38,278 nt of DNA from assembly GCA_002780235.1 (NCBI GenBank), contig PEVO01000026.1:1-38278 (forward strand). The letters are read 5' to 3'. This stretch comes from Candidatus Berkelbacteria bacterium CG06_land_8_20_14_3_00_43_10 (GTDB taxonomy: Bacteria; Patescibacteriota; UBA1384; GWA2-35-9; CG2-30-43-20). A program made the position numbers and the translations under genes. Shown piece after piece: positions 10,948 to 28,454 of this stretch. The notes beneath the pieces are model-generated. The model saw nothing but the letters and a program-made list of their open reading frames with translations. It had not been told where the DNA came from and made no database searches. Numbering within the stretch: position 1 is the first letter of the stretch; every line of letters starts with the position of its first letter.

Positions 10948-10966
10948 GTGTTACGGTGTGTAACAC
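10948..10966. promoter_or_regulatory. 7-bp inverted repeat GTGTTAC-N5-GTAACAC just upstream of the Clp-like gene's SD
   Basis: Perfect arms at 10948-10954 and 10960-10966. It ends 5 nt before AAGGAGGGGA (10971-10980) and the GTG start at 10982. It could be an operator or a 5-prime-UTR hairpin. Confidence 0.4.
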
Positions 10967-10981
10967 ATCAAAGGAGGGGAC

Positions 10982-13674: not shown

Positions 13675-13767
13675 AAAGTCCGTAAAGTCAAAAGTCCGTA
13701 AAGTTTTAAAGTCCAAAAGGGATTCCATGGTTTTCACTTTATAGACTTTATGAACTTTATAGACTTT
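13675..13767. repeat. iteron-like palindromic intergenic element, copy A
   Basis: Left arm: AAAGTCCGTAAAGT x2 plus a degenerate third copy (13675-13719). Core: GGATTCCATGGTTTTCACTTTA (13720-13741), identical to 33421-33442. Right arm: ACTTTATAGACTTT x2 (13736-13749 and 13754-13767), the approximate reverse complement of the left-arm units. Confidence 0.7.
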
Positions 13768-13778: not shown

Positions 13779-14180
13779 ATGAGCCAATACAAAGTTCCCC
13801 AAAATGTTGATATGCAAGATAAGATCGTTGGACCGCTCACAATGTTCCAATTTTTGTATCTGTTAGCCGGCGGGATGATCTTTTATTCTACATTTAAAGC
13901 AGGGCAAACTGTGTTGACGATTTTGGTCGGCATCCCCGCCGCACTTGTTGGACTCGCATTTGCCTTTGTCAAAGTTAACGACCAACCGTTTAATAAATTT
14001 GTCGTCTCGTTTGCGTTCTTTTTAACGCACCCCAAATCGCGTGTTTGGCATCAAGGCGGGAGCACACCAAGCGTGCTGGTAACACAGGACCCCAACAAAA
14101 AAGATGCGCATGTGACACCAAAGGCGCTTGATAAACAAAAGCTCGCAACCGTTGCGCGCACGCTGGACGAAGCATCATGA
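13779..14180 (+). CDS. PrgI / VirB3-like small membrane protein of a T4SS-like locus
   Basis: The N-terminus YKVPQNVDMQDKIVGPLTMFQFLYLLAGG, followed by two TM helices, matches the PrgI family pattern (from memory). The stop overlaps the next start (ATGA). Confidence 0.65.
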   Translation: MSQYKVPQNVDMQDKIVGPLTMFQFLYLLAGGMIFYSTFKAGQTVLTILVGIPAALVGLAFAFVKVNDQPFNKFVVSFAFFLTHPKSRVWHQGGSTPSVLVTQDPNKKDAHVTPKALDKQKLATVARTLDEAS

Positions 14181-15040
14181 CTAAAAAACCAACGAAACCA
14201 CAAGCGCCCTCGACACAGCAACACGTCAACGTGGTGCAAGTAAAGCAAGGGATCATTGTGACGCGTACCGGGTCGCTGCGCCAGGTGCTTAAAGTTGAAC
14301 CCGTCAACTTTGCGCTCAAATCTGACCAAGACAAAGAGGTGATGATCGGGCAATATCAAAACTTTATCAACTCGCTTACTTTTCCTATCCAAATTGTCAT
14401 TCACTCGCGCCGACTCGACGTCACGCCCTATCTGCACCGTTTATCGCAGAGGGTTGCGCAAGAGCCCAACGAACTACTCCAACTACACGCGTATGAATAT
14501 ATCGATTTTGTATCGGAACTGACATCGATGACCAATATTATGGATAAAAAGTTTTATGTTGTGGTCGGCTACGAACCACCACCGACCGCGCGTAAAGGGT
14601 TTTTGAGTAATCTGTTTGGAAAAAAGCAAGACATTATTTCATTTACGGAAACCGATTGGCAAAAACATGCAGCAGAGATGGGACAACACGTGGGCACTAT
14701 CGCCGGCGGGCTTGCAGGGCTTGGGCTCAAAGTTGACACCCTTGATACGCAAGAGGCGATCGAACTGCTCTACGGCGTATATAACCCAGAAGAGGCGACC
14801 AGCGAAAAGCTAACCGAGGTTGAGTCGATGCAGTCATCGGTCGTATCGCTCACGGCGCAAGGCGCGCCGACGCAACCAGCAGGCACACCGGTGACGACCC
14901 CGCCAGCTACTGCGCAACCCACTGGGCAAGGCGCAGGAGTACCCGTAACAGCTCCACCACAACCCGCACCACCGGCACAACCAGCGCAACCATTACCAAT
15001 AAAACAACCCCAAGGAGGGTCTGATGCCCCCAAACAGTAG
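14177..15040 (+). CDS. T4SS-associated protein resembling the extreme N-terminal domain of Gram-positive VirB4 (TrsE/PrgJ) ATPases; Pro-rich tail
   Basis: VQVKQGIIVTRTGSLRQVLKVEPVNFALKSDQDKEVMIGQYQNFINSLTFPIQIVIHSRRLD follows the pattern that opens many VirB4-type proteins (from memory). The C-terminal ~60 aa are P/A/Q/T-rich. It overlaps the VirB4 ORF by 17 nt. Confidence 0.6.
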   Translation: MTKKPTKPQAPSTQQHVNVVQVKQGIIVTRTGSLRQVLKVEPVNFALKSDQDKEVMIGQYQNFINSLTFPIQIVIHSRRLDVTPYLHRLSQRVAQEPNELLQLHAYEYIDFVSELTSMTNIMDKKFYVVVGYEPPPTARKGFLSNLFGKKQDIISFTETDWQKHAAEMGQHVGTIAGGLAGLGLKVDTLDTQEAIELLYGVYNPEEATSEKLTEVESMQSSVVSLTAQGAPTQPAGTPVTTPPATAQPTGQGAGVPVTAPPQPAPPAQPAQPLPIKQPQGGSDAPKQ

Positions 15041-17012
15041 CACGCCTCCACCAGCACAAAGCCCACTCTCGCCAACGCAACCCACCGTTGCGCCTATTAC
15101 GGGTGCGTCACCTCCAAAAGTGCAGGCACCACTTGCAAGCATACCGTTAATGCAACGTCCTTTACCCGGTGTTGCGCATACCGATAGCAAAAAACAACCA
15201 TCCGCCACCGATGCGATGACAAAAAAAATGTTAGAAGGGCGCACGGGGCTTTTAGATATCATTGCCCCTGCAGCGTTTGTGGTCACCCCCAACTTTTTAC
15301 AGCTCAACAACACCTATCTTAAATCGTTCTTTGTCTATACTTACCCACGGTTTTTAAACACCAACTGGCTGTCACCCGTTATCAACTTTGATATGACCAT
15401 AGATATCACCATGTTTGTCTACCCCATCGCAACCAACGAGGTGATGAGTCAACTGCGCCGCAGACAATCACAGCTCGAATCGACCAATATGATGCAACAA
15501 GAAAAGGGGATGGTGCGCGATCCAGAACTGCAAACCGCGATAGAAGATATCGATTCGATGCGCGATGCGCTCCAAAAAGGCGAGTCGCGGTTGTTCCAAT
15601 TTTCGCTCTACTTTATCTTATACGCAACCACGCATGAAGAGCTTGCGACGCTCACCCATACGCTCGAATCGGCTCTGGGCGGGATGCTCATTTACACCAA
15701 ACAATCATTTTTGCAGATGGAACAAGGGTTTAATTCCACGCTCCCGCTTGGCACCGACGAGTTGCGCATTATGCGCAACATGGACACGGGGTCGCTGTCG
15801 ACAACGTTCCCGTTTACATCGGCTACGCTATCGAGTAACGAAGGGATACTCTACGGGATCAATCGTCATAATTCATCGCTTATTCTCTTTGATCGGTTTA
15901 AACTAGAAAACGCAAATACCGTTGTGTTTGCACGCTCTGGTGCAGGTAAATCGTATACCGTTAAGCTAGAAGCGATCCGCTATTTGATGGTGGGCACCGA
16001 TATTATTGTCATCGACCCAGAAAATGAATACGAAAAATTAGCTGAAGCGCTCGGCGGGAGTTTTATCCCCATCTCGCTTAACTCCGATAAGCGCATCAAC
16101 CCGTTTGACCTACCGCCCGTGCCAGAAGGGGAAGACGGCGAAACGGTGTTGCGCAGCAATATCGCCATGGCGACCGGTTTAATTGCACTGATGGTCGGCA
16201 CGATTACGCCAGAAGAATCGGGGCTCATCGACAAGGCGCTCTACCAAACATATGCGCTCAAAGACATCACCACCGACCCGGCAACGTTTTCTAACCCCCC
16301 ACCGCTGTTGCAAGATTTTGTCGGCGTGTTGCGCAATATGTCGGGCACCGAGTCGCTGACCCAACGGCTCAACAAATATATCGATGGGTCGTTTGCGGGG
16401 CTGTTTACCCAACCGACTAACATTGATTTGGGGCGGGGGCTGATCGCCTTTTCTATCCGCGATTTAGAAGAACAGTTGCGCCCCATCGGAATGTATCTTA
16501 TCTTGACCTATATTTGGAACAAAGTCCGCCACAAACTGCGTAGGCGCATACTGATTCTCGATGAGGCGTGGATTTTGATGCAACACGAAGACAGTGCGCG
16601 GTTTGTCAACGCGCTGGTTAAACGCGCTCGTAAGTATTATTTGGGCGTTACGGTGATATCGCAAGATGTAGAAGACTTTCTTGGCTCGCAGTATGGGCGG
16701 TCGATATTAAACAACGCATCTATGCAGATTTTACTTAAGCAATCTACCACGACGGTAGAAAAGTTAGCGGAAGCGTTTAAACTAACGGACGGGGAAAAGT
16801 TTCTCCTGCTGGAATCGGGTGTGGGAGAGGGTCTGTTCTTTGCAGGGCAAAACCATGTGGCGATAAAGATTGTCGCAAGTTATACAGAAGATCAGATTAT
16901 CACCACTAACCCACAACAGCTACTCGCGCTCAAAGAGGCGGCAAAGGTGCAGCTTGCAGCACGTAATTCTGCTCCCCAACCTGCTCCCCAGAACATGCCG
17001 GAGAAGAGTTAG
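15024..17012 (+). CDS. virB4: VirB4/TrsE-type T4SS ATPase
   Basis: Walker A VVFARSGAGKSYT, Walker B RRILILDEAWILM, downstream VTVISQDVEDF, and the N-terminal block DIIAPAAFVVTPNFLQLNNTYLKSFFVYTYPRFLNTNWL typical of VirB4. AAGGAGGG lies 5 nt before the ATG. Confidence 0.9.
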   Translation: MPPNSSTPPPAQSPLSPTQPTVAPITGASPPKVQAPLASIPLMQRPLPGVAHTDSKKQPSATDAMTKKMLEGRTGLLDIIAPAAFVVTPNFLQLNNTYLKSFFVYTYPRFLNTNWLSPVINFDMTIDITMFVYPIATNEVMSQLRRRQSQLESTNMMQQEKGMVRDPELQTAIEDIDSMRDALQKGESRLFQFSLYFILYATTHEELATLTHTLESALGGMLIYTKQSFLQMEQGFNSTLPLGTDELRIMRNMDTGSLSTTFPFTSATLSSNEGILYGINRHNSSLILFDRFKLENANTVVFARSGAGKSYTVKLEAIRYLMVGTDIIVIDPENEYEKLAEALGGSFIPISLNSDKRINPFDLPPVPEGEDGETVLRSNIAMATGLIALMVGTITPEESGLIDKALYQTYALKDITTDPATFSNPPPLLQDFVGVLRNMSGTESLTQRLNKYIDGSFAGLFTQPTNIDLGRGLIAFSIRDLEEQLRPIGMYLILTYIWNKVRHKLRRRILILDEAWILMQHEDSARFVNALVKRARKYYLGVTVISQDVEDFLGSQYGRSILNNASMQILLKQSTTTVEKLAEAFKLTDGEKFLLLESGVGEGLFFAGQNHVAIKIVASYTEDQIITTNPQQLLALKEAAKVQLAARNSAPQPAPQNMPEKS

Positions 17013-17035
17013 GGGGATTAGGGGGATTAGGGGGA
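17009..17035 (+). repeat. tandem repeat (TTAGGGGGA)x3
   Basis: Three perfect 9-bp units. The first contains the VirB4 stop codon (17010-17012). A further GGGG run lies at 17046-17049. Confidence 0.85.
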
Positions 17036-17053
17036 ATTTGAAAATGGGGAAAT

Positions 17054-18328
17054 ATGGAAGATAAACAAAAAAACACCCTCCTTGTTGGTCTCGTTATTGC
17101 GATCGTGATCTTTTTGTTTCTCCTGCCCATTATGATCATTGCATTTGCGACATTCGGTAAAGGGCAAGGGGAGTTGGGGGATAGCGGAGTTCCTGGATTA
17201 GGAAACTCCGGAACAACTGGTCAAATTACAAGTACTGTGATCTCCTGCATAATTGATAAAGGGAATGGCAAGCTTAATTCCGCTACGGTTGCTAGTTTGC
17301 AAACGAAGCAGCCCGTATATGAAGCTGGTGCGGCTCAAGCAGGTATTCCGTGGGATGTGCTTGCTGCACTTCATATGCGTGAGACTGGGTTAAACGCATC
17401 GGGGGACAATCCATTCCAAATAACAGGATATCATGGCACGTTTTCAGCCAATGCTGCAGCTACCGCGGCAAAGTTTCTTGTTCACAAAGGAAAATCTGTT
17501 TACGGTGTCGATATTAGCAAAAATCCTTCTGATGAAAATATCCAACTTGCATATTTGGCATACAATCGGGGCTCAAGCTATAAGTCAAAAGGGCTTACTC
17601 CAAATGACTCTCCATATGTTTTTAATTTTTATGACTCAGCGCATCAAAATATGAAATGGCCACCCGGAGATATCGGAAGCGTCGGCGGTGTGAGTATCGC
17701 GGGAAAAGTTGATCGCAATCTAGGCGCATTTACATTTCTCTCTATTATGCGTAGTTGTGGTGGTACTGCTCCTCCGTCAAATATTCAAGGTACGGTATTG
17801 CCCCTCAAACAAGCTGAAATGAAAAATACTTTTAATTCGACTCTCCATAATTGCTCAATTAGTTCGCCACCAGGATGTAGTGATGGGGGGCACCGTCCAG
17901 TTCTTGGATCACTCAATTCACTCGGGACAAATATTCCTACAAAACGGAGTAGTGGTGAAGCGTCAGACGTTATGACTATACATGGCGCTACGGTATACGC
18001 ACCATTTAGTGGTACAATTACCTATAATGGACATGTCAGTAGAAGTGATGCGTCGATGGGGCAGATGTTGACAGTTCAGTCCACCGATGGTAGAATGACT
18101 GCAGCGCTACTCCACCTTAACAAATCCGGTATCATCGCAAAGAAGACAGTAAAAGCCGGGGAGCCGGTTGGAACGGTCATCACTATGATTAGTAGTCGCG
18201 GTAACGATATCACACATCTTCACTTTGAGTTATGGATAGACGGAAAGGCTATCAACGCCGGTGGTCCAGGATCAGGTGTAAGTGGGGGGAAAGTCTGGAA
18301 AGCGCAAAAACATGCGCTAGGTTATTAA
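17054..18328 (+). CDS. membrane-anchored peptidoglycan hydrolase-like protein with C-terminal M23/LytM-like domain
   Basis: The N-terminal TM is LLVGLVIAIVIFLFLLPIMIIAF. The central block GIPWDVLAALHMRETGLNASGDNPFQITGY is transglycosylase-like (weak call). The C-terminus has ATVYAPFSGTITY...GQMLTVQSTDGRMTAALLHL...VKAGEPVGTV...ITHLHFELWIDGKAIN, the M23 pattern. The first HxxxD metal motif is not evident. Confidence 0.75.
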   Translation: MEDKQKNTLLVGLVIAIVIFLFLLPIMIIAFATFGKGQGELGDSGVPGLGNSGTTGQITSTVISCIIDKGNGKLNSATVASLQTKQPVYEAGAAQAGIPWDVLAALHMRETGLNASGDNPFQITGYHGTFSANAAATAAKFLVHKGKSVYGVDISKNPSDENIQLAYLAYNRGSSYKSKGLTPNDSPYVFNFYDSAHQNMKWPPGDIGSVGGVSIAGKVDRNLGAFTFLSIMRSCGGTAPPSNIQGTVLPLKQAEMKNTFNSTLHNCSISSPPGCSDGGHRPVLGSLNSLGTNIPTKRSSGEASDVMTIHGATVYAPFSGTITYNGHVSRSDASMGQMLTVQSTDGRMTAALLHLNKSGIIAKKTVKAGEPVGTVITMISSRGNDITHLHFELWIDGKAINAGGPGSGVSGGKVWKAQKHALGY

Positions 18329-18340
18329 GGAGTAACTACA

Positions 18341-19027
18341 ATGAAAAAGAAATATCTGACCACATTATTGCTTTCTATACTCGTCGTTGGGCTTCTGTTC
18401 GTTTTTCTGGTCTATAATAATAAATCGGTAAGCAAGACATACTACATTGCATACACCGATCCCGCCGACAATGCGACTGCGGTTATCATGGACCCTACAC
18501 TCGTTGTAAGTTTTGTAGGTAAACCACCAAAAGTATCCGCACTTTCTGTGTTGTTAGATCCTGCAACAAAGTTTACCACTTCAACCGATGGCTCATTTCT
18601 TGAAGTCAAACCTTCAGATGGGTTAATGCGAAACACATCCTATAAGCTTAGCTTGACTTTGAAGACCGGTGACTTCATTCTCCCTGATGGTAAAACTCGT
18701 TCGAATAAAGTAATCATCAACTTTCAGACTGGAGAACAAAGCGGAGCGGACTTTGAGGAAAAAGAAATATTCTCGGGAGATCCAATACAAGACCTTAACG
18801 CACAGCTTCCCTATAGTACCGAGCATTATGTTATCAATCCTCCTAACGACAAAGGCGAATACGTCGTCCAGCTTAATATTCCTATAAACTCTAGCGTCAA
18901 CATACCTCAGTCGGTTCAGGATAAAGAGCTTGTCGCGCGTGTTAGCCAATACAAGAAAGAGTCTTTGGATTGGATTGCGAGTTTTAAGGTTGATCTTAGT
19001 AAAATCACAACTCGGTTTGAGTTTTGA
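18341..19027 (+). CDS. membrane-anchored protein with Ig-like (SbsA/Big_5-type) domain
   Basis: TAAGGAG SD. N-terminal TM LTTLLLSILVVGLLFVFLVY, then YTDPADNATAVIMDPTLVVSFVGKP...YKLSLTLKTG, typical of bacterial Ig-like domains. Confidence 0.7.
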   Translation: MKKKYLTTLLLSILVVGLLFVFLVYNNKSVSKTYYIAYTDPADNATAVIMDPTLVVSFVGKPPKVSALSVLLDPATKFTTSTDGSFLEVKPSDGLMRNTSYKLSLTLKTGDFILPDGKTRSNKVIINFQTGEQSGADFEEKEIFSGDPIQDLNAQLPYSTEHYVINPPNDKGEYVVQLNIPINSSVNIPQSVQDKELVARVSQYKKESLDWIASFKVDLSKITTRFEF

Positions 19028-19049
19028 TACTACATCTCCTGTATACTTA

Positions 19050-19080
19050 AGACGCCCCCGTGGCGTCTCGTTCTTTTTTT
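19050..19080 (+). terminator. rho-independent terminator
   Basis: AGACGCC (19050-19056) pairs with GGCGTCT (19062-19068) across a 5-nt loop, followed by CGTTCTTTTTTT. It lies 22 nt after the stop at 19027. Confidence 0.75.
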
Positions 19081-19098
19081 ATTGCGCTTTTAATGATA

Positions 19099-19107
19099 TG
19101 ATATAAA
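19099..19107 (+). promoter_or_regulatory. possible extended -10 promoter (TGaTATAAA) for the second T4SS-like operon
   Basis: TG at 19099-19100 and TATAAA at 19102-19107, about 10 nt upstream of GGGAGGGG (19117-19124). There is no good -35. Confidence 0.3.
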
Positions 19108-19127
19108 TAGAATCGTGGGAGGGGACA

Positions 19128-20594
19128 CTGGACGACCAACAAACCGATACCTATCCACAAGGAATACAAGCTGGTGAGACATCCAGTGCTTTTTCGTATA
19201 CTCAACCTGACCCTCCTCCCGAATCTCCCCAACTACCCCAATCTCCCCAACCCCTCCCACATTTTCCCGATCCCAACCACAAACCATCGCCTATTCGCAT
19301 ACTTCTTGCCGGTATCGGCGTGACGGTTGTTATCATCGCCGGTGTTGCGCTCTTTTTGTATAAACCGATGGTTACTATTCAATCGGATATGCCCGACGCA
19401 AGTATTACTATCGATGAGGTTGTGTATAGTAAACCAACACGTGTCACACCGGGTGCACATACCGTTATCGTCGCGCGCGACGGGTATGTGCCGTATACCT
19501 ATGCTGGCGATATTGGCGCGTTTTCATCGCTTAATCTGTCTACTACACTGCGCCCACTGTCGACAACACAGTCTATCGTATCGGATAACGCGTTTGCGGC
19601 GAGTTTTGGCAGTGACGGCAAACAGCTCTACTACTTTGCCAGCGATAAAAATACGCTCTATAAATTGAGTTTGACGGACAACCCGCAAGATACTAAAAAA
19701 GTCTATTTTACCCCAGAAAAAATATCGCCCGATAATTTGGTCAAACTTAATAAAGTTGTCTTTGCACCTGATTTTTCTGTCGCAATATTTAAGCGCGTGG
19801 ACGGCGATACCGGGCTCTACGATTTTAAGCGCTACAATTTATTAAACCAAGAATACACCAGCTGGGGCAAAGACATTGGCGATGCCGTATGGAACAGCAC
19901 CAGCGTGCAAGACGATGCGCGTGTCATCTATTACTACGCCCCACCAACGGGGGAACGGTTGCTTATGAAAAGTAACCGCAAACACGACAGCGTAACCAAC
20001 ATTATGGATCTCAAAGAAAAAGCCGGCATCACCGTTTCTGCCGATAGTCCTGTCGCGCCACAGCTGTCGTGGTCGCGCGATAACCAAGCGCTCCTTGTTG
20101 TTGCGCAAGGCAAACTACTTGCAATGAACGTTATCACGCAAACAATAACCTACATCGCCCAAACCGGCGTCACATCGGCACAGTTTGCGCCCGATAGCCA
20201 CCATATTATCTATACGCAAAACGGTCAGTTGGTGTGGCAACGCTTTGAAGTAGTCAATGGGCTGTCGGGTAACGAAGAGGATCAAAAAAATGTCGGCCGC
20301 ATTAAAATCGCCCCGCCGGAACCTTACGATGTGTCTGCAAACGCATTAAAAGGGATATTCACTGCCGATGGGAAAAGGTTCATCGTTATCAACGATGCAA
20401 ACGCCATCGTCCAGATAGATCTTGTCAAAAAGATGGTATCACCATTTTATTTGCAAAATGACCCGCGGCTTAAGGCGATTACATCGCTTGGGCTTTCTGG
20501 CGATGGGCGCATGCTCTATGGGCTCACCGGCACGACCATTCTTGCAATTCCGCTCGATGACGGGTCGTATACTCAAACACAGGAGAAAAAGTAA
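19128..20594 (+). CDS. membrane protein with PEGA domain and TolB-like beta-propeller repeats (start codon uncertain)
   Basis: The track ORF starts at GTG 19320, in the middle of a TM helix. The frame is open back to 19107 and encodes a Pro-rich cytoplasmic segment plus KPSPIRILLAGIGVTVVIIAGVALFLY. The only SD-preceded candidate start is CTG 19128. The PEGA-like block is ITIDEVVYSKPTRVTPGAHTVIVARDGYVPY. Propeller-like repeats include DGKQLYYFASDKNTLYKLS. Confidence 0.7.
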   Translation: MDDQQTDTYPQGIQAGETSSAFSYTQPDPPPESPQLPQSPQPLPHFPDPNHKPSPIRILLAGIGVTVVIIAGVALFLYKPMVTIQSDMPDASITIDEVVYSKPTRVTPGAHTVIVARDGYVPYTYAGDIGAFSSLNLSTTLRPLSTTQSIVSDNAFAASFGSDGKQLYYFASDKNTLYKLSLTDNPQDTKKVYFTPEKISPDNLVKLNKVVFAPDFSVAIFKRVDGDTGLYDFKRYNLLNQEYTSWGKDIGDAVWNSTSVQDDARVIYYYAPPTGERLLMKSNRKHDSVTNIMDLKEKAGITVSADSPVAPQLSWSRDNQALLVVAQGKLLAMNVITQTITYIAQTGVTSAQFAPDSHHIIYTQNGQLVWQRFEVVNGLSGNEEDQKNVGRIKIAPPEPYDVSANALKGIFTADGKRFIVINDANAIVQIDLVKKMVSPFYLQNDPRLKAITSLGLSGDGRMLYGLTGTTILAIPLDDGSYTQTQEKK

Positions 20595-21898
20595 TGGCAG
20601 ACGATAAGTCAACATGGCGACGTAAAAGTTCTGGGACATCGCGTTACGCAAAGATGCTCGCGCTTGGCGCAAGTCTAATTACGGGTGCGCCCAAATCAAA
20701 CCCAGCAAACCCGGATGCAACTAACGCGCCACAAGAAAAGATACAAAATATTGCGCAAAAACCGACCGATGGCATGCGTGCGCCAGCACTCCCCGATGCG
20801 CCGTCTACTGGTGCTGACCAAATCAAACAAGGTATGCCACAAGCGATGCCTCACGATGAGGTTGATGATGTGCTCCAAGGTGTTGATAATAACGATGACG
20901 GGAGCGGTGATGTGTATGATGCGCTAAGGCGTGAGCAAAAAGACAAACAAAAAAATCAAAACGATAACCAAAACGTTACCAACAAAAATGATCCAAATAC
21001 ATCTCCTAAATCTCCCAAGTCCCCTAAAGGTTCCCAACTCCCCACCACGCAACCTGCCCCGGGCAGTGGTGTAAAGGGAGCCGAGCAAGCAGTCAAAAGT
21101 GAAGCAAAAAATGCGGTCAAGAAAGCAGTAAGTAAGGTTGTAAAAGAGGCGGTCAAGCAAGCCGCCAAAGCGATCTGGCTGTTTATTCTTGCGAACCTCG
21201 AATGGATAATCCCTGTTGTCGTGGGACTTATAGTCGCGCTCGCGTTCATCGCCTTTGTTGTCTACGTCTATTGTCTCTTCCCGCCAAGCCCGTGTGGAAA
21301 AGCCGGGAATTTGATGTCGGATGTAAATAAAATTGGTGACTCTCTGCGAACCAGCGGGGTCGCTGATCGAGCCGGAGTGATGGGCGATATCCAACCATCA
21401 TCAGGTTCGCACGGTGTCCCTCTCTATAAACAAAATAATTATAAAAACGTTTCATATGGCTGTGGTGGCACAACAATCGCATCGGGTGGATGCGGTATTG
21501 CGGCGACCGCTATGGTATTACAGTTTTACGGTAAAAAAGATGCAACACCTCCGACCCTTGCAAAGTTTTCTCTTAAAAACGGAGGGCGCACATGCAACGC
21601 AGGAACAAATCATGGTTTTTTCCCAAAGGTTGCCAAGTCGTATGGCATGAACAACCAAAATGGTATCTCATGGGATGCAGCCATGTCTCACTTAAAAAAG
21701 GGACATCCAGTTATTGTTTCTGGCAAAGGTCCACCACCATTTACATCAGGCGGGCATTACGTTGTTATGACGGGGTTTGAACCCAATAACTATATCGCTG
21801 TTAATGATTCTGCGGGTGGTAAATCGCGCGACGGCAAGGCATACCCCAAAGGATATATTAAGTCGCATCAACATTTCTTAACGGTTATCTACCCATGA
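20594..21898 (+). CDS. membrane protein with C-terminal peptidase C39-like (papain-fold) domain
   Basis: The start overlaps the upstream stop (TAATG). TM LFILANLEWIIPVVVGLIVALAFIAFVVYVY. The C39_2-like pattern is PLYKQNNY...SGGCGIAATAMVLQFYG...KKGHPVIVSG...GGHYVVMTGFEPNNYIAVNDS (Cys/His/Asp candidates). Confidence 0.8.
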   Translation: MADDKSTWRRKSSGTSRYAKMLALGASLITGAPKSNPANPDATNAPQEKIQNIAQKPTDGMRAPALPDAPSTGADQIKQGMPQAMPHDEVDDVLQGVDNNDDGSGDVYDALRREQKDKQKNQNDNQNVTNKNDPNTSPKSPKSPKGSQLPTTQPAPGSGVKGAEQAVKSEAKNAVKKAVSKVVKEAVKQAAKAIWLFILANLEWIIPVVVGLIVALAFIAFVVYVYCLFPPSPCGKAGNLMSDVNKIGDSLRTSGVADRAGVMGDIQPSSGSHGVPLYKQNNYKNVSYGCGGTTIASGGCGIAATAMVLQFYGKKDATPPTLAKFSLKNGGRTCNAGTNHGFFPKVAKSYGMNNQNGISWDAAMSHLKKGHPVIVSGKGPPPFTSGGHYVVMTGFEPNNYIAVNDSAGGKSRDGKAYPKGYIKSHQHFLTVIYP

Positions 21899-22227
21899 CA
21901 CGCAAACCTATTACATACCAAGTTTTTGCTGTATCTGTCGTTCTAGTCGTCTGTGCTGGAATTGGAGTTTGGGCTTCACTTATATTTTCGCGAGCACATA
22001 TTACTATCAAGACTGACCCTGCTGGTGGAGAAATTTGGGTAGACAATAAAGGATACTCATCTCCTGCATCAGTCTATCTTCTCCAAGGATCTTATGACGT
22101 TTGGGCGATACAAGATGGATATCTCCCCTTAAGTAAAACGGTGATTGCGAGGCGTGGTCAATCACAGAATGTTATACTTACACTTGAGGTTGACCCCAAC
22201 CAACCCCCGGAAGGAGCGCCACTATGA
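21895..22227 (+). CDS. small membrane-anchored PEGA-domain protein
   Basis: ATGA overlap at both ends. TM VFAVSVVLVVCAGIGVWASLIF, then ITIKTDPAGGEIWVDNKGYSSPASVYLLQGSYDVWAIQDGYLP (PEGA pattern). Confidence 0.75.
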   Translation: MTRKPITYQVFAVSVVLVVCAGIGVWASLIFSRAHITIKTDPAGGEIWVDNKGYSSPASVYLLQGSYDVWAIQDGYLPLSKTVIARRGQSQNVILTLEVDPNQPPEGAPL

Positions 22228-25200
22228 CGCAACGTAAATACTGGAGATCTTTTATTGTGTTTCTGACTGCAGGTATGCTGTTTATGAACCCCTTAATAGT
22301 CTTTGCGCAAACAACCACGTCAGATACTTCCGGTGAAGGCGAGCAAGTCGAACAAGATACGGGCGGGGATGAAAACGACCTCGTTATACCGCCGGTTGCA
22401 ACAGGCGGAGAGTGGGAAAAGCCGGCACTTAAAATGTCGGGTATCGACCTAGGCGCGATCATGCAAGGAAAGGTTGATGCACGTGTCCCAAAATTACTTC
22501 TCTATCTGACAAGCAAAAAGGATGATGGTGGCGCCGGTCACTGGTATATCCGCGTGCAACGGGTGATCAAAAACTATCGGGGCAAAAAGGATCTCTCCAA
22601 AGAAACAGATTACGATGCGCTCTCCGATTCATCGGGAGTCCAACTCGACCCTAACGAGTCGGCGCATGCAGAAGATATCGCCCAGGCGCTTGATATCAGC
22701 GAAATAGATACCTACCAATGCGTCATAAAAGGCAAACCGGGGGAGGAAGACAAAAAGACACCGCCGATGCCGATTTTGGTCAAATGGCAGGATAAAGCGC
22801 CGGGGACAACGGTAGGCGATGAGGGTGGCGGGGGCGGGTTTCATGGCGATAATCTGTTTGATCTGGGCGCATCGTTTTTCTCAAGTGGCTTACTCACCGG
22901 CTTAAGCGATAATGCCGATTTTACCATCGGCGACTATCTGCCGACCGATAACAGTATTATGGGCGCGATTACCGGCATGGGACAGGCAGCGCTTAAAGAC
23001 GAACTCGGCATACCATTCCCCACACAAGGCACGCTTGGCGATACGCTCACTGCCATGGGCGCACAAGTTATGGCAGACCAAACGGGGCTCCCCGCAGAAA
23101 CATTTTCTGGCAGTAATAAAAATGAGTGGCTGGGCAATATCGTCAAGGGGAGTATCACGAAAGAGCTCAAACTTCCCGATGGGTCGCTCCAAGGTGATTC
23201 CATCGATGCATGGGTAGAATCGACCGGCAAACGTGTGATAGAACACGATCTTATGTTGCGCGAGGGGATCCTCGATTCCATTCCAACAACCGGGGGGATC
23301 AACGCACTTGCGCAAGCAAAATTCGAGACGATCGCCGATCTGCCCGGCGGCGCGCTCACTACTCTCAAAGATGGTGTCATACAGTCAACCGGACAATCGA
23401 TTGTCCCGCTTCTTGCCAACGCATCGCATATCGATGAGCGACTCGGTATTCCTGTTGGGTCAACGCAGGCGCTGGCGCAGGGCAAAACATCGGTTAAAGA
23501 CTTTACCACAAAAGTTGCCGAGCCGATTAAAGCAGATTACATAACACGCTTTAGCCAGTGGGACCGGTCAAACCCCATCATTGCACCCACGCTCACAAGC
23601 GTGAAACCAACCGATTTTCCCGAGTGGAAGGGTCCAGACAAAGCATGGGGGATACCCAGTGGCGCACTCGAAAACTTGCTTGCCAACAAACCACAACTGT
23701 TTTACCGAATGACCGGCGCAGATAGATTGGCGCAGGTGTTTGGACTCCCTAAAGACGATGCTGATAATCTGGTGCGCAATACAAAATTTGGTCCGGTCAA
23801 ATCTATTGATGTCGCCAAGGGTCACGGCAACCCTGCAAGCATCACATCGGAAGATTGGGTAAAACTCTTTAAGGGGACCGACCAAGACCGCCAAGAGATC
23901 TTTGAACGTGTTGGTAACGACATCTTTACCACCAAAATAGCACCAAACGTCAAATCAAATCTCTACTTCGACTTTACTAAAAAGAATCTGCAAAGTGTGT
24001 TTGACGGAAACGGCGATATTAGTGCATACGCCCTGCAGCTTGGTGGGAGTGCGCTTGACTCTAGTTTTGATATCCCCGACAACACATTTGTCAATGCGCT
24101 TAAGGCAAACCCAAGCAATCCTATCGAGGCGGTTGACACGGCAATTATCACAAGCATAACCGATACCCTTAATATGGATACCGGTTTATCGAGCCAATAT
24201 GCGCTCCCCGGGGGATACCAGATTACCGACGATGATGTGAAGGGTTTGTTCCAAGGGCAAGCAACCGCACTCTTTAACAAGCTCGGCGGCAAAGAATATG
24301 ATGCATCCATCCAGGCGCTTCCGGGGAACTCCTTCGATTACGCGCAGGGCAAACTGTCTGCATCCTCACTCTTTGGAAACGCCGGCATCTATAGAGTCGC
24401 GCTTGGGTTAGGGCTCAAACAGACCGACCCCAAGCTCCGTGACAACGGTGTAACGGGTGGAGCCGACGCGCGCGGCACGTATCTTGCCAAAATAATCTCT
24501 GATAACGCAAGCCGCATCAACCAACCGTTTCTTGAATACACATTTAACGCCGATGCCGATCTATCAAAGATCTACATGTTTAATTTTGAGGATGTGCAAA
24601 AAAGCCTCCAAAACATTACAAAAGACGCTAAAAACGCGGTGGGCAACGCATCGCTTCTTCTTGCAGAATCCGTGTCTGCAGCAAGCGGTTTCCCGTCCGG
24701 AACGCTCACCAGCGTATTACTGTCACCGCAAAACGCATCCAAAATAATGATTGACACAGGGATCAGCATGCTGTCGCGCGCCATTGGGCTAGAAGATCCC
24801 GAATCACCGTTTGGCGAAAATAAACTGTTGCAAACCTATCTTAACCCAGAAAAGTTTATCGATTTTGGGTCGTTTACCCCCATGTTTGGCGATCCATCGA
24901 TGAATATGAAAAGCATCAACGCGGCAGCAAATACCGCGATACAAGGTCTTACAGGAAGTATCGCAACCGCAACGGGAATCACGAACATCGACCACGCCGC
25001 ATCGTTTTTGACTGGTGATACATCGACCGGTATCACTGCGTGGGGGTTGTCACTTTTTGCCAAAAATACTAACGAGGGACTCACCAACCCGGCGGCGCTC
25101 ATCGATTACGATACGATCGCAAAATCAGTTTTTGGCGATGCGGGGGCGCTTGCGACCACAACATCCGACGCGACCAAAAACTTTGCCTCAAACGCTAAGA

Positions 25201-26123
25201 TAGCCGAGGAAAACACAATTGATGGCTACGTAAACGCATCGGTACGCGAAACAATGGGTGATTTTAAAGATATCGCCAACGCTAAGGTTCTCGATGCGGG
25301 GCTTATTAAAAAAGACCCTAACATCCCCGTCGGGTTTTCCGCAGCGATGCTTATGGGGACAGACGACCAACGTAGCGCGGTGCTTGGTGAATATGTAAAA
25401 AACGCTGGGTTTACCGATGCGGCGCTCGGCGACACGCTGGGGTTTGATGTCCCCGGTGGCACGGTTGACGGGCTTCTTAAAGGAGTTACAACCGGCGATT
25501 TTGGCGATATATTGAGTACAGAAAATATAAGCAGTATGGCGTTTTCATTTGCAGATTCTGAATTTGGTTTTGAAGCAGGCACAACATCGCAACTTAGCGA
25601 TATATTCTCTGGCAAAGAAGATATGTCGTCCATGTTTGCATCGGGTGATATTGGTTCTACGGAGATGCAACAAAATCAAACGATGATGGCGATCCAAGCG
25701 GCAGATATGATCACCGGTGGCGCTATTAGCGACGTCACATCATCGGTGGATGATTCTCTGGGACTTCCTGCGGGTACAACAATGGCAGTCGTGGTGTTTC
25801 TTGTGACGGGAGATCCGACACAGCTGATAAATATCGCGCTTGGAGAGATATTTGGGTGGGGCAAGATGGAGTGTCCCGACCTTAAAAAACTTGCGCAAGG
25901 AAAGGTGCACGATCTGTTAAACGAGGTAACGCAATATGCGCTCGATGAACAAAAAAATAACAGTGATAGACCGGTTATCCCCTCGCAGATCATGACATGG
26001 CGCGATGAGGACATTAAGGGATTACTGCCTTTATCTGAAAAGTTGTTCGGTCCGGGTGGGCGACGCAGCAAGGGAGGGGTGGTCAAAGGGCTCAATCCGG
26101 ATTATATTCATATAGGGTTCTAA
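22224..26123 (+). CDS. 1299-aa secreted/surface protein of unknown function with recurrent short G(I/L)PxG motifs
   Basis: Signal-peptide-like N-terminus (RSFIVFLTAGMLFMNPLIVFAQTTTSD). There are about 14 occurrences of a (L/I/V)P-x-G-type motif, for example LGIPFPTQGT, LGIPVGSTQA, WGIPSGALEN, SGFPSGTLTS, LGLPAGTTMA. A hydrophobic segment lies near the C-terminus (MAVVVFLVTG...INIALGEIFGW). Confidence 0.85.
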   Translation: MTQRKYWRSFIVFLTAGMLFMNPLIVFAQTTTSDTSGEGEQVEQDTGGDENDLVIPPVATGGEWEKPALKMSGIDLGAIMQGKVDARVPKLLLYLTSKKDDGGAGHWYIRVQRVIKNYRGKKDLSKETDYDALSDSSGVQLDPNESAHAEDIAQALDISEIDTYQCVIKGKPGEEDKKTPPMPILVKWQDKAPGTTVGDEGGGGGFHGDNLFDLGASFFSSGLLTGLSDNADFTIGDYLPTDNSIMGAITGMGQAALKDELGIPFPTQGTLGDTLTAMGAQVMADQTGLPAETFSGSNKNEWLGNIVKGSITKELKLPDGSLQGDSIDAWVESTGKRVIEHDLMLREGILDSIPTTGGINALAQAKFETIADLPGGALTTLKDGVIQSTGQSIVPLLANASHIDERLGIPVGSTQALAQGKTSVKDFTTKVAEPIKADYITRFSQWDRSNPIIAPTLTSVKPTDFPEWKGPDKAWGIPSGALENLLANKPQLFYRMTGADRLAQVFGLPKDDADNLVRNTKFGPVKSIDVAKGHGNPASITSEDWVKLFKGTDQDRQEIFERVGNDIFTTKIAPNVKSNLYFDFTKKNLQSVFDGNGDISAYALQLGGSALDSSFDIPDNTFVNALKANPSNPIEAVDTAIITSITDTLNMDTGLSSQYALPGGYQITDDDVKGLFQGQATALFNKLGGKEYDASIQALPGNSFDYAQGKLSASSLFGNAGIYRVALGLGLKQTDPKLRDNGVTGGADARGTYLAKIISDNASRINQPFLEYTFNADADLSKIYMFNFEDVQKSLQNITKDAKNAVGNASLLLAESVSAASGFPSGTLTSVLLSPQNASKIMIDTGISMLSRAIGLEDPESPFGENKLLQTYLNPEKFIDFGSFTPMFGDPSMNMKSINAAANTAIQGLTGSIATATGITNIDHAASFLTGDTSTGITAWGLSLFAKNTNEGLTNPAALIDYDTIAKSVFGDAGALATTTSDATKNFASNAKIAEENTIDGYVNASVRETMGDFKDIANAKVLDAGLIKKDPNIPVGFSAAMLMGTDDQRSAVLGEYVKNAGFTDAALGDTLGFDVPGGTVDGLLKGVTTGDFGDILSTENISSMAFSFADSEFGFEAGTTSQLSDIFSGKEDMSSMFASGDIGSTEMQQNQTMMAIQAADMITGGAISDVTSSVDDSLGLPAGTTMAVVVFLVTGDPTQLINIALGEIFGWGKMECPDLKKLAQGKVHDLLNEVTQYALDEQKNNSDRPVIPSQIMTWRDEDIKGLLPLSEKLFGPGGRRSKGGVVKGLNPDYIHIGF

Positions 26124-26136
26124 AAATACATATATT

Positions 26137-27045
26137 ATGAAAAAACTATATATATTTGGTATCATTGTCGCATCACTGACAGTTTTGTATCTGCCGTTTG
26201 TTGCGCACGCTCAGATCGGCGCACAGTATCCCAATGGGTTTAACCGAGTCCAAGGAAAAGGCGACTTTGATAAATACAGTTACGATTACTCTGTTTGGTG
26301 TAATGTCGCAAGCGACGTTGGAGGCATCCTTTCCATTGACAGATCAAGCGCGAGCACCGATACATATACGTGCGCGCCGGCAAGCGCGTCCACATATTAT
26401 TCTGCGAAGCAATTCCCTTCTTCATATTTTGCGCAAAAAGAAAATTCGAGTCGTATACTTTGTAATTACGAAAATGGGGGAACCGGGGGGGTCTATTCGA
26501 CAAAACGCGACCAGTATATCGACCATTACTATTGTAAGAAGTCGGGGTCATCATCGAGTGGAGGCACCGGTTCTGGGGGGACAACAAGCTCGGGCGGATC
26601 AACAGGAACGGGAACAAGCCCGAGCACGGGGAGCGGGTCGAGCAGCGGAACGGGTGGGCTCGGCAACAAATCGCTCGCAGAGATGACCGTCACCGTGCCG
26701 AGTCTAGGTGTTTTTAGCGATATCGGCACCTATTTGAGCACCCTTATCACGCGCTACGGCATCCCGTTTGCGGTGATGGCGGCGCTCATTCTTATTATGT
26801 ATGCCGGGTGGCACTACATCCACTCCGGTGGGTCACCAGAAGGACAAAAACTCGCAAAAGAGTTGATTGTTGGTGCGCTTTTAGGGCTTCTTGTCCTGTT
26901 TATGATCGGCTACGCACTAACGGTGATTATCCCGCAAGAAGAACTTAATAGTAGCGGCACTACCGGACAAGCTAATGGAGCAACCATAACCGTCAAACTG
27001 CCCGCCCAAATTAAATCTTTAAAAGGTAAATTGAGTGGTAACTAA
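26137..27045 (+). CDS. VirB2/TrbC-like pilin domain fused to an N-terminal Cys-containing domain and a Gly/Ser/Thr linker
   Basis: Signal peptide LYIFGIIVASLTVLYLPFVAHAQ. Four Cys lie in the first ~130 aa, followed by the linker SSSSGGTGSGGTTSSGGSTGTGTSPSTGSGSSSGTGG. The C-terminus IPFAVMAALILIMYAGWHYIHSGGSPEGQKLAKELIVGALLGLLVLFMIGYAL matches the two-helix TrbC/VirB2 pattern seen in CPR pilin-like proteins (from memory). Confidence 0.7.
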   Translation: MKKLYIFGIIVASLTVLYLPFVAHAQIGAQYPNGFNRVQGKGDFDKYSYDYSVWCNVASDVGGILSIDRSSASTDTYTCAPASASTYYSAKQFPSSYFAQKENSSRILCNYENGGTGGVYSTKRDQYIDHYYCKKSGSSSSGGTGSGGTTSSGGSTGTGTSPSTGSGSSSGTGGLGNKSLAEMTVTVPSLGVFSDIGTYLSTLITRYGIPFAVMAALILIMYAGWHYIHSGGSPEGQKLAKELIVGALLGLLVLFMIGYALTVIIPQEELNSSGTTGQANGATITVKLPAQIKSLKGKLSGN

Positions 27046-27065
27046 GGTCAATACTTCCCAAGCTT

Positions 27066-27347
27066 ATGAAAAACACATCGCAAAAAAAATCCGAAAATAT
27101 TCTTTTCATCGCGGGCATACTGAAAAATATCAGTATTAAAAATCGTCAGGTGGCAGTCAGCCTTTTTATACTTGTAATTGTTTTGGTCTTGGTGTTGATA
27201 CTCGTCAAGGAAAATATAGCTAAAGCGGATACCCAATGGGAGGCGAGTCAGAATGCTGAAATACCCGGCGACCAAAGAGTTATTAATATTGCGAAGGAAG
27301 TAGCCGACGCAAAAGTTGCACCCTATAAGCCGATCAATTGCGGGTAA
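27066..27347 (+). CDS. small single-pass membrane protein, hypothetical
   Basis: 93-aa ORF with TM VAVSLFILVIVLVLVLILV and no clear SD. It is in series with the operon. Confidence 0.5.
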   Translation: MKNTSQKKSENILFIAGILKNISIKNRQVAVSLFILVIVLVLVLILVKENIAKADTQWEASQNAEIPGDQRVINIAKEVADAKVAPYKPINCG

Positions 27348-27377
27348 AAATTACCATTATATAAATATCCGAAAAAT

Positions 27378-28454
27378 TTGCAGATTAACTCAACTAAAAT
27401 GACTTTGTTCCAGTCAAAAATACAAGGGTTGTTTTATCAAGTTTGTATTTACGAAAAACAATACGACCCGAGCTATCGTCTCAACTTAAATTCTGTTATT
27501 ATTTTGGACGAAAATATTATTAATCAAGATCCAGCCAACGCCGAGATGTCACAATTTGATATTTATTCCGGTAATATTTTAGTCGGTTCCGATCTATTTG
27601 ATAAAACAGACTTGCTTGACTTTACCTTGACCGTGCAATTAGTTGAAGCCTTCCAGTATGGGGGAAAAGAGCCTAATAGACCAAGCTATCCTATATACGG
27701 CGTTATGATGGATGCGAAAGTTTATTATATGAAAGATAGCGTTAACAGGTATACCTCTGCAAAGATTTTGCCCAACAACTCTGTCGCCACTAGCAAAGTT
27801 GGCAAAGAAGAAAGAGACATAATAAGTGCTATGATTGAGGCAATGAAGAGAATTCAACCGGAGAAAAGAGATACGGCAGAAAAATTGGCGATCAGCACCA
27901 TCAATAAAGAATTTGATGGGGGCGAATTAGGCAAAAAAGTATTTGATCCTATTTTTAAACCATATATGGATTCTTTAGGACCGTATACCGGCAAAAAACC
28001 TGGTGCTGGAGAACCGGAAGACTTCAAAAAAAATATGAATAGTCCATATTACAGAATCTCTGAATCTGTAAAGGCGGCTGGTCAAATTGAGTCGGGTTGG
28101 AAAGGTTGGAGACAAGAGGATACTGTGGATTGGTTAAACTCCATTGAAAATCCAGATTATATACGTCACCCAAGAATAATTACATCAGCGGGCACAACCG
28201 CAAATACATCCGTCGCGCTGCCAAAAAGCTTTAACCTCACTGACGGTCATAGCGCTACTGTAGAACCGGGGACTTACTCTTTAACCGCAACCCTAACCAC
28301 GGGCGGAACAAAGGATTGTGGGAAAGTCAATGTTGATGCTAGTGGTAATGTCAATATTTCCTATACTGGCGGTCAATGTAGCGCGCAACCCTCCACCGTA
28401 TCTAATGGAAAATTAACGGAAGCCAATAACACCAGGGCTAACTCCCTACCCTAA
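27378..28454 (+). CDS. hypothetical protein (start uncertain: TTG 27378 or ATG 27399)
   Basis: 358-aa ORF that is AT-richer than its neighbours, with no signal peptide or SD. The C-terminal region is Thr/Gly/Ser-rich and beta-like. Its 3-prime end overlaps the convergent DUF721 ORF by 17 nt. Confidence 0.55.
   Translation: MQINSTKMTLFQSKIQGLFYQVCIYEKQYDPSYRLNLNSVIILDENIINQDPANAEMSQFDIYSGNILVGSDLFDKTDLLDFTLTVQLVEAFQYGGKEPNRPSYPIYGVMMDAKVYYMKDSVNRYTSAKILPNNSVATSKVGKEERDIISAMIEAMKRIQPEKRDTAEKLAISTINKEFDGGELGKKVFDPIFKPYMDSLGPYTGKKPGAGEPEDFKKNMNSPYYRISESVKAAGQIESGWKGWRQEDTVDWLNSIENPDYIRHPRIITSAGTTANTSVALPKSFNLTDGHSATVEPGTYSLTATLTTGGTKDCGKVNVDASGNVNISYTGGQCSAQPSTVSNGKLTEANNTRANSLP

Follow-up and report, generated by a model that had tools for sequence, protein, structure and literature searches.

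Can a type IV secretion system (T4SS) that lies close to the chromosomal origin, with neither a relaxase nor a coupling protein beside it, be a conjugation machine, or does it serve another kind of exchange between a bacterium and its host? The question is raised by contig PEVO01000026.1 (assembly GCA_002780235.1) of Candidatus Berkelbacteria bacterium CG06_land_8_20_14_3_00_43_10, whose 38,278 nt are the window analysed here. According to the list of open reading frames (ORFs), a T4SS-like locus of 12 ORFs, named g1 to g12, runs in one direction along the forward (+) strand from the start of g1 at position 13779 to the end of g12 at 28454. These bounds are exactly those of an initial annotation made from the sequence alone, which counted thirteen genes, but whose own list also sums to 12. 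The locus is probably a vertically inherited, origin-proximal T4SS of the Patescibacteria clade, descended from monoderm MPF-FATA conjugation machines and used for host attachment or penetration and the exchange of macromolecules, not for conjugation. Judged by its sequence, it is a member of an already published Patescibacteria T4SS type (PMC10633639, PMC12102498, PMC12857230). Specific to this member is a modular set of exported proteins, consisting of a 1299-aa protein, a PEGA protein with a propeller, hydrolase cassettes and a lone, extended pilin.

The VirB4 motor module

The first gene, g1 (13779 to 14180), encodes a PrgI/VirB3-like protein of 133 aa with two transmembrane (TM) helices. 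It matches Pfam PF12666 with an E value of 2.6e-10 and 41 bits, above the gathering cutoff of 27, which bears out the earlier PrgI/VirB3 call. The TrsD-like product of g2 (14177 to 15040; 287 aa with a Pro/Ala/Gln-rich tail) covers only the N-terminal 110 to 125 or so positions of VirB4 profiles, in addition to matching the TrsD family (NCBIfam VirB4_plasma, E 2.4e-8; CD1110 profile positions 10 to 118; TrsD NF041427, E 2.3e-4), and its homologues carry the TraC-like PF26593. It is followed by g3 (15024 to 17012), which encodes a VirB4 ATPase of the MPF-FATA/CD1110 type, a soluble protein of 662 aa with a Pro-rich N-terminus. This protein matches the TraG P-loop domain (E 2.8e-24) and, over profile positions 179 to 734, the NCBIfam CD1110 VirB4 family with 374 bits (cutoff 325). 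VirB4 had been described as split, and g2 does correspond to its N-terminal part and g3 to the rest, the first half being called TrsD in the literature.

Our comparison set comprises 80 genome loci fetched with VirB4, which are cited below by their L numbers. The same two-gene arrangement of g2 and g3 in 79 of these related loci makes the split ancient. BLASTP detects g1 in 69 and g2 in 79 of the 80 loci, and all gene maps inspected show g1 immediately before g2-g3, making the trio near-universal (69 to 80 of 80 loci). The search for g3 homologues found 7995 proteins, of which the best all come from Patescibacteria with 60 to 82% identity, the nearest at 82%; the best named homologues belong to the Berkelbacteria/Patescibacteria group. 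Plasmid VirB4 proteins reach 29 to 37% identity in their best matches. The best matches, the CD1110 score and the plasmid identities all point to g3 belonging to the Patescibacteria VirB4 clade, which is described as the sister of MPF-FATA (Quinonero-Coronel et al. 2025, PMC12102498).

Chromosomal position and absent conjugation genes

Upstream of the locus, the window shows a NIF3-like gene, a low-GC restriction-modification island and a ClpB-like gene. Downstream lie dciA, recF, dnaN and dnaA, convergent with g12, and then rpmH, rnpA, yidD and yidC; the genes from dciA to yidC mark the chromosomal origin region. The trio recF-dnaN-dnaA is found within 10 kb downstream in about 49 of the 80 loci, and the origin-proximal position is kept as far as Saccharibacteria. 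Close relatives, with VirB4 identities of 71 to 82%, share the order NIF3, ClpB, PrgI, TrsD, VirB4, hydrolases, PEGA/propeller, hydrolase, giant protein, pilin, DciA, the pilin end being visible in L081, L083, L001 and L090.

Profile searches found no relaxase, type IV coupling protein (T4CP) or integrase domain in any main ORF of the 38-kb window. This agrees with the initial annotation, which saw no relaxase, VirD4-type T4CP or integrase and considered a conjugative element unlikely. Such genes immediately outside 13779 to 28454 would have spoken for an integrative and conjugative element (ICE); none was found there, and both flanks consist of core genes. Scans of the window for tRNAs and Rfam families, covering integration sites and riboswitches, returned nothing. 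The locus is not an ICE; its place is between NIF3/ClpB and DciA-recF-dnaN-dnaA-rpmH-rnpA-yidC, a layout that recurs in relatives and in Saccharibacteria.

The absence of VirB6, VirB8, VirB9 and VirB10 had also been remarked upon, and for VirB6 this holds. A hidden Markov model (HMM) of the Saccharibacteria VirB6-like family of about 930 aa, encoded upstream of PrgI, has no match in the window, where at least three TM segments are predicted only for YidC, the ClpB-like protein and the pilin. The only candidates for a VirB8-like bitopic protein of the PrgL/TraM type (NTF2-fold) are g5, with a TM segment and about 200 aa, and g11, neither of which gives a sequence signal. VirB9 and VirB10 are not to be expected in a monoderm.

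The pilin and the giant exported protein

The product of g10 (26137 to 27045) is a putative VirB2-like pilin fusion of 302 aa. It is composed of a signal peptide (residues 1 to 25), a Cys-containing domain of 115 aa, a Gly/Ser linker and a two-helix core, in which the TM segments 202 to 226 and 238 to 268 are joined by the loop HSGGSPEGQKLAKE. Signal peptide and two helices together match the pattern of VirB2/TrbC pilins, in which a short charged loop parts two hydrophobic helices within a core of about 70 aa. The VirB2 call is reflected weakly in public profiles, whose scores are weighed below, but strongly in a Saccharibacteria pilin-array HMM (E 7.6e-13), which we built from 60 of 218 clustered pilin ORFs. 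The core is nearly identical across the versions in g10, L093 and L090, with the N-terminal part differing in length. The N-domain is duplicated exactly and in frame (129 aa) in one population, giving a pilin of 431 aa (L093, 4373 to 5668), and the L090 pilin (10822 to 12621) has about 290 extra residues, for a total of 599 aa, next to a g9 protein that is 90% identical to that of the window. N-terminally extended pilins make up about 10% of the 239 pilin-family ORFs of the related loci, most of these 239 belonging to Saccharibacteria arrays. The fusion is thus not unique to this locus, where it is carried by the sole pilin.

The preceding gene, g9 (22224 to 26123), encodes an exported protein of 1299 aa with a signal peptide and about 12 LG(I/L)PxG(S/T) motifs. 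Its C-terminal part has one weak hydrophobic segment, and the last 120 or so residues are strongly conserved. It has no Pfam match and no PDB sequence match, and two large protein searches returned only four members of its family. The family is clade-restricted. Because its gene always lies just upstream of the pilin gene, which it overlaps in relatives, g9 may be a pilus-associated adhesin or a base component. We also considered whether g9 could be a counterpart of the protein of about 1000 aa encoded after VirB4 in Saccharibacteria (SEML1_0007-like) or of VirB6, and rejected both, as the hhalign probabilities are at most 1% for either family. The highest hhalign score of g9, 15.5% over 25 columns, was obtained with the SEML1_0006-like hydrolase cluster. 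An N-terminal motif, SAHAED...D, recalls a mark of M15/LAS peptidases, which we mention as an idea only.

Wall hydrolases and anchored surface proteins

Signal peptides or TM segments are predicted for all proteins of the locus except g2, g3 and g12. Directly after VirB4, g4 (17054 to 18328) encodes a putative VirB1-analogue wall hydrolase of 424 aa with an N-terminal TM segment, a lysozyme-like domain and an M23/LytM domain. The usual VirB1 analogues in Gram-positive T4SSs are M23, SLT and CHAP hydrolases. The lysozyme-like domain shows the motifs GIPW..H.RE..NP..Q and AYNRG and aligns to the Saccharibacteria SEML1_0006-like cluster with an hhalign probability of 96.6. The M23 domain, already named in the initial annotation, is recognised by Pfam with an E value of 1.4e-12. 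It has neither the His of the HxxxD motif nor the central His, two of the four conserved histidines, and its best PDB match is DipM, an inactive LytM factor; the domain may be non-catalytic. A mixed-family g4 profile gave no match in the PDB.

The second hydrolase, g7 (20594 to 21898), is predicted to consist of an anchor, formed by an N-terminal module (residues 1 to 190) plus a TM segment, and a papain-like enzyme domain at residues 274 to 407. Pfam assigns this domain to Peptidase_C39_2 (E 1.5e-24), confirming the C39-like call, and the Cys/His motifs SGGCG and GGHYVV are present; searched alone against the PDB, the C39 domain found no match. Between the hydrolases, g5 (18341 to 19027) encodes an exported protein of 228 aa with a weak Ig-like (Big_5) N-terminal domain and a C-terminal domain without a family. 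This "Ig-like" protein has a single-pass topology; its Big_5 match (E 1.7e-3) stays below the Pfam cutoff. The small single-pass protein g8 (21895 to 22227; 110 aa) matches Pfam PEGA with an E value of 2.2e-7 and the HMM of Saccharibacteria PEGA cluster 6 with 2.8e-5. The essential PEGA proteins of the SEML1_0005 type, encoded in T4SS loci of Saccharibacteria, are of this family too.

A PEGA domain is likewise found in g6 (E 1e-4), so that both PEGA calls are upheld with scores above the cutoff. With a CTG start, g6 (19128 to 20594) encodes 488 aa and begins with a Pro-rich cytoplasmic tail, followed by a TM segment, PEGA and a TolB/WD40-like beta-propeller. The propeller, too, had been recognised correctly, as a PDB search with the family profile finds WD40 and TolB propellers (E 1.3e-4 and 6.7e-3). 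The PEGA family alignment built from g6 is also similar to the Saccharibacteria PEGA cluster (hhalign probability 99.5).

The start of g6 is probably the CTG at 19128, because the homologues align from residue 11 of the version starting there and a GGAGGGG box, 3 to 5 nt 5' of the in-frame CTG, is common to the window, L084 and L090, whose sequences diverge farther upstream. No in-frame ATG, GTG or TTG precedes the GTG at 19320, which lies inside the TM helix; gene callers therefore cut g6 short within this helix. An ATG upstream of CTG 19128 runs into a TAA two codons on, and L084 is likewise without an in-frame canonical start.

Mosaic evolution of the exported parts

Compared with the L084 orthologues, VirB4 is 81% identical, g6 52%, g9 51%, g7 32% and g5 29%, the exported parts evolving far faster than the motor. 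The closer relative L090, with 97% identity in VirB4 and 90% in g9, differs by the exchange of whole segments. There, g4 and g5 are replaced by an SLT protein and a 338-aa protein, and the C39 domain of g7 together with g8 is replaced by a CHAP domain and a 324-aa protein; blastn places the breakpoints at 16966/19118 and 21322/22398. The anchor of g7 (residues 1 to 190) is kept, while the enzyme domain behind it varies, being C39 in the window, M23 in L084 and CHAP in both L085 and L090. The g4 family similarly combines one lysozyme-like domain with M23, CHAP or C39 domains. The swapped segments have a lower GC content at third codon positions (GC3) than the backbone.

Gene boundaries and transcription units

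All five start/stop overlaps of the initial annotation are present, namely g1/g2 (4 nt), g2/g3 (17 nt), g6/g7 (1 nt), g7/g8 (4 nt) and g8/g9 (4 nt). Its range of 13 to 99 nt for the remaining junctions is only partly accurate, since the gaps measure 41, 12, 13, 20 and 30 nt, plus a g5/g6 spacer of 292 nt with GTG 19320 as the g6 start or 100 nt with CTG 19128, the start that had evidently been assumed. A thirteenth gene in 19028 to 19319 was considered and rejected, the only candidates being an out-of-frame ORF of 49 aa and antisense ORFs; extending g6 in frame accounts for the gap better.

The best terminator-like site of the region lies in the g5/g6 spacer. It is an intrinsic-terminator-like hairpin at 19050 to 19068 (AGACGCC-CCCGT-GGCGTCT, 7 bp, 5 of them GC) with a T-run to 19080, followed by a TATAAT-like box. 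Hairpin, T-run and box recur at the equivalent position in the relative L084. With a conserved terminator after g5, the locus is therefore probably composed of two transcription units, g1 to g5 and g6 to g12. Upstream of g1, the spacer behind the ClpB-like gene contains a repeat array (13675 to 13767) with two copies of AAAGTCCGTAAAGT and three of ACTTTATAGACTTT. These are roughly reverse complements of each other and jointly form an imperfect inverted repeat of 30 nt; the array may be a promoter/operator or the terminator of the ClpB-like gene.

Comparison with known systems

The T4SS of Southlakia epibionticum lies beside dnaA-dnaN-recF, is essential by transposon sequencing (Tn-seq) and has a pilin array and no recognisable T4CP or relaxase (PMC10633639). 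Its genes encode a prealbumin-like protein (SEML1_0004), PEGA (0005), a lysozyme-like domain with a Cys protease (0006), a protein of 1113 aa with a DD-peptidase domain (0007), VirB4 (0008), TrsD (0009), PrgI (0010), a protein of 998 aa (0011), an NTF2-like protein (0012), a VirB6-like protein (0013) and pilins (0014 to 0019) (PMC10633639). With Southlakia ML1 (SEML1_0004 to 0019) and the Patescibacteria clade, our locus shares the PrgI-TrsD-VirB4 core, its order and its place beside recF-dnaN-dnaA, a pilin of the same family, PEGA proteins, membrane-anchored lysozyme/peptidase hydrolases after virB4, and a cluster without T4CP or relaxase. The pilin, however, is single, N-terminally extended and located at the 3' end, as opposed to a divergent array of 6 to 7, and there is neither a polytopic VirB6-like protein of the SEML1_0011/0013 type nor a protein of about 1000 aa of the SEML1_0007 type. 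Instead, the locus has the clade-specific 1299-aa protein, the PEGA+propeller protein and the C39-like hydrolase, with the ClpB-like and NIF3-like genes upstream. The initial annotation found most components without an assigned role in any characterised T4SS, which is partly true, but the PEGA proteins, the hydrolases and the pilin have essential counterparts in Southlakia (SEML1_0004 to 0019).

Several of these features agree with a 2025 survey, in which TrsD and PrgI adjoin virB4, VirB2-like pilins lie nearby and hydrolases other than VirB1 occur (PMC12102498). VirB6 is described there as scarce in some classes and not universal, relaxases as almost absent, and the T4SS as close to dnaA, dnaN and rnpA (PMC12102498). 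PEGA, propeller, C39 and ClpB are not mentioned in the main text of the survey (PMC12102498), whereas PEGA appears in the tables of Wang et al. (PMC10633639). The Patescibacteria T4SS is also summarised in a 2025 FEMS review (PMC12857230).

Among conjugation systems, the trs genes of pGO1/pSK41 (TrsC-TrsD-TrsE-TrsG) and the prg genes of pCF10 (PrgI, PrgJ, PrgK) resemble the locus in having a VirB3-like, a TrsD-like and a VirB4 protein followed by a multidomain hydrolase. PrgK combines LytM, SLT and CHAP domains. These systems are borne by plasmids or ICEs, encode a T4CP and a relaxase and use surface adhesins, not a VirB2-type pilin; our locus lies on the chromosome and carries none of these. 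The only subclass known to have TrsD is that of pGO1, which is also without a recognisable VirB6 (PMC12102498). On an Embleya plasmid, a conjugative relative, the order is VirB6-like, PrgI, VirB4, T4CP, relaxase-like and NlpC/P60, with T4CP and relaxase directly after virB4, unlike the arrangement here.

The closest VirB4 proteins outside the CPR (candidate phyla radiation) are those of Pontibacillus (37.5% identity) and Priestia megaterium H1 (37.4%). The 898-kb replicon of Pontibacillus sp. ALD_SL1 (NZ_CP062975.1, about 351.8 to 361.4 kb; L176, 7504 to 17057) carries a similar cluster of pilin, PrgI, TrsD, VirB4 and M23. It includes two pilins of the CPR family (E 1.4e-26 and 7.3e-19), PrgI (E 5.6e-9), TrsD (E 7e-24), VirB4 (E 4.7e-128) and, after VirB4, an M23 protein of 1050 aa; neither a T4CP nor a relaxase gene adjoins the cluster, and the record is classed as non-mobilizable. 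In contrast to our locus, a VirB6-like protein of 779 aa with 7 TM segments is encoded between the pilins and PrgI, there are no PEGA, propeller or giant g9-like proteins, and the cluster is not near dnaA. A pilin-bearing, relaxase-less version thus exists in Bacillota as well, and VirB2-like pilins are not exclusive to Patescibacteria among monoderm T4SSs.

Bordetella Ptl, Brucella VirB and Helicobacter ComB also have no coupling protein or relaxase, showing that VirB4 machines can run without a conjugation module. ComB imports DNA instead of exporting it. All three belong to diderms and have a VirB6-10 core complex, and the sequence relation to our locus is limited to VirB4, VirB3 and VirB2. 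Ptl and Brucella VirB are listed among the T4SSs without T4CP in the FEMS review (PMC12857230).

Proposed mechanism and alternative explanations

Neither T4CP nor relaxase nor VirB6 is encoded nearby, and we therefore read the locus as a machine that probably attaches to or penetrates a host and exchanges macromolecules with it. The homologies, predicted topologies, synteny and mosaic evolution of the exported parts are those reported above; assembly, cargo and direction we infer from VirB4/VirB2 biology and from work on Southlakia and OT8. Through PrgI/VirB3 (g1) and the TrsD-like g2, the soluble VirB4 hexamer (g3) would dock at the membrane, where it would spend ATP to pull the two-helix pilin g10 out of the membrane, polymerising a VirB2-type pilus or conduit. 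With the N-terminus of the pilin facing outward, the variable N-domain and its Gly/Ser linker could decorate the filament surface. The anchored hydrolases g4 (lysozyme-like plus degenerate LytM) and g7 (C39/papain-like) might open the cell's own wall and possibly that of the host, and g5, g6 and g8 (single-pass Ig-like, propeller and PEGA proteins) together with g9 could form the wall-spanning, host-contact part. We favour a pilus conduit that would acquire host material, with protein export as the alternative. For a cultivated relative, tubular connections between parasite and host were suggested to be T4SS pili, and uptake of host RNA was proposed (bioRxiv 10.64898/2026.06.21.733656). The dedicated pilus, adhesion or effector machine of the initial annotation, likened to those of epibiotic CPR bacteria, fits all the evidence and is an already published idea.

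Several observations weigh against an exchange machine of this kind. No VirB6-like protein is encoded in the 38 kb, which makes a translocation channel hypothetical, and a T4CP, VirB6 or relaxase could lie elsewhere in the genome, as most Patescibacteria T4CP genes are far from virB4 (PMC12102498). Public pilin profiles score g10 below threshold (E 0.01 to 0.02), and AlphaFold2 models of g9 residues 40 to 330 and 100 to 1299, based on a four-sequence alignment, reach a predicted local distance difference test (pLDDT) value of 43. The terminator after g5 means that the genes are not a single operon, leaving conserved synteny as the one indication that g6 to g12 may function together with g1 to g5. 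None of the RNA runs searched for the locus contains it.

Two alternatives deny that there is a dedicated machine of this extent. The VirB4 belongs to CD1110/MPF-FATA, a family at work in ICEs and plasmids of Gram-positive bacteria, with the plasmid identities given above, and the locus might be an ordinary ICE or its remnant with relaxase, T4CP and integrase just outside the window. This is extremely unlikely, given core genes on both flanks (ClpB and NIF3 on one, dciA to yidC on the other), no tRNA, integrase or repeats, a chromosomal position that is constant from close relatives to Saccharibacteria, and a conjugative relative on the Embleya plasmid that keeps its T4CP and relaxase-like gene immediately after virB4. 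The neighbourhood could also be composite, the T4SS being restricted to g1 to g4 and possibly g10, with g5 to g9, g11 and g12 as unrelated envelope, wall and surface genes near the origin; the conserved terminator and promoter-like box between g5 and g6, the absence of g11 and g12 from all relatives and a g9 without homology to any T4SS protein would suit this. It is nevertheless very unlikely, as the order PEGA/propeller, hydrolase, giant protein, pilin is kept after virB4 in every close relative with a sufficient locus, despite 30 to 50% protein divergence. The pilin at the far end moreover brackets g6 to g9, and PEGA and hydrolase genes accompany virB4 in Saccharibacteria, where they were scored essential along with it.

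The other two alternatives accept the machine and change its task. Export of protein effectors, in which the apparatus would inject or release the hydrolases, g9 or distant effectors into a host bacterium with a T4CP encoded elsewhere, is a common T4SS role. Wang et al. (2023) wrote that the Southlakia system "may instead export proteins" (PMC10633639), many Patescibacteria genomes contain T4CP homologues far from virB4 according to the 2025 survey, and fast-evolving, cassette-like hydrolase domains would suit host-directed enzymes. We still consider it unlikely here, as the 38 kb hold no T4CP, the distal T4CP of Southlakia is not essential whereas its T4SS genes are (PMC12102498), and g4, g7 and g9 carry TM anchors or Sec signals, a monoderm surface being reachable without a T4SS. 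That VirB3, TrsD and VirB4 are reduced to a pilin dislocase and polymerase, making an adhesin-decorated filament without any transport, is distinctly unlikely. It would agree with the lack of a VirB6-like protein, T4CP or VirB11 nearby, with a sole pilin that has a variable display domain and copy-number polymorphism, and with the constant adjacency of g9 and pilin, but Saccharibacteria versions keep large VirB6-like polytopic proteins beside PrgI, their adhesion has already been ascribed to type IV pili, and essentiality in Southlakia suggests more than adhesion.

Within the preferred exchange machine, a more specific reading is rather doubtful. The T4SS of this clade might be a VirB6-less, single-pilin machine with exchangeable host-contact modules, namely the variable pilin N-domain, g9 and hydrolase "slots", where recombination would add C39, M23, CHAP or SLT domains to a conserved membrane anchor. 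The locus would then act as a cassette system for the host range of an epibiont, and its pilus would be the first of any T4SS known to carry an adhesin domain on each subunit.

Before that of Patescibacteria, no T4SS had been shown to be essential to the cell that carries it, and this locus is a compact variant of it in a groundwater lineage. The comparison separates what is invariant, i.e. PrgI-TrsD-VirB4, a pilin, a wall hydrolase, a PEGA protein and the origin-proximal position, from what is plastic, i.e. VirB6-like proteins, the number and decoration of pilins, hydrolase chemistry and giant surface proteins. The hydrolase and pilin display domains swapped between near relatives are candidate determinants of host specificity. 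Judging from the Pontibacillus cluster, the pilin-bearing version seems to extend beyond CPR, which bears on how CPR acquired the machine.

Terminal genes and neighbouring region

The last two genes, g11 (93 aa, one TM segment) and g12 (27378 to 28454; 358 aa, no TM segment or signal peptide), occupy 27066 to 28454 and are species-specific. Neither has homologues, and HMMER, run against 1.84 billion representative proteins, recovered nothing beyond a fragment of g12. Both have a low GC content (0.40) and are confined to contigs of the same species; the pilin gene abuts dciA in all close relatives, where g11 and g12 are absent. The 3' end of g12 overlaps the convergent dciA by 17 nt. Because all four polymorphic sites of g12 among strains are synonymous, it is a real gene under purifying selection, though an ORFan. 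The two genes probably do not belong to the T4SS core.

On the other side, the ClpB-like ATPase (10982 to 13672) has a conserved N-terminal domain with 3 to 4 TM segments in place of Clp_N and no long middle domain. The membrane domain carries the motif TYDFFS..LLKTLFxPWKxD, and the gene is syntenic with PrgI in L081, L083 and L001. Its family is widespread, a metagenome scan having yielded 256 relatives, often as two adjacent ORFs. We rejected a role as a substitute for the coupling protein, as VirB4 was found in none of the 36 loci that extend 3.5 kb or more beyond the gene on its downstream side.

The organism is uncultivated and recurs in groundwater and aquifer metagenomes, its sole source so far; the locus is present in more than 24 aquifer metagenomes. 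Strains differ in the restriction-modification island (8215 to 10856, GC 0.38) between the NIF3-like gene and ClpB, which is absent in L081 and L083. The island holds an endonuclease of the MvaI/BcnI family and, on the opposite strand, a single ORF of 643 aa that joins LexA DNA-binding, S24 autopeptidase and N6/N4 DNA methylase domains. Four further strain contigs cover the endonuclease: three of them (L086, L088, L089) interrupt it with a premature stop (W>*, 8607 G>A), and in L087 it is intact. At the beginning of the window, positions 1 to 3500 have a GC content of 0.53 to 0.56 and contain two ORFs of about 440 aa (734 to 2056 and 2072 to 3418) without a Pfam match, followed on the opposite strand by a PaaX/Cas2-like regulator (3821 to 4408); the segment from 1 to 3500 may be foreign DNA.

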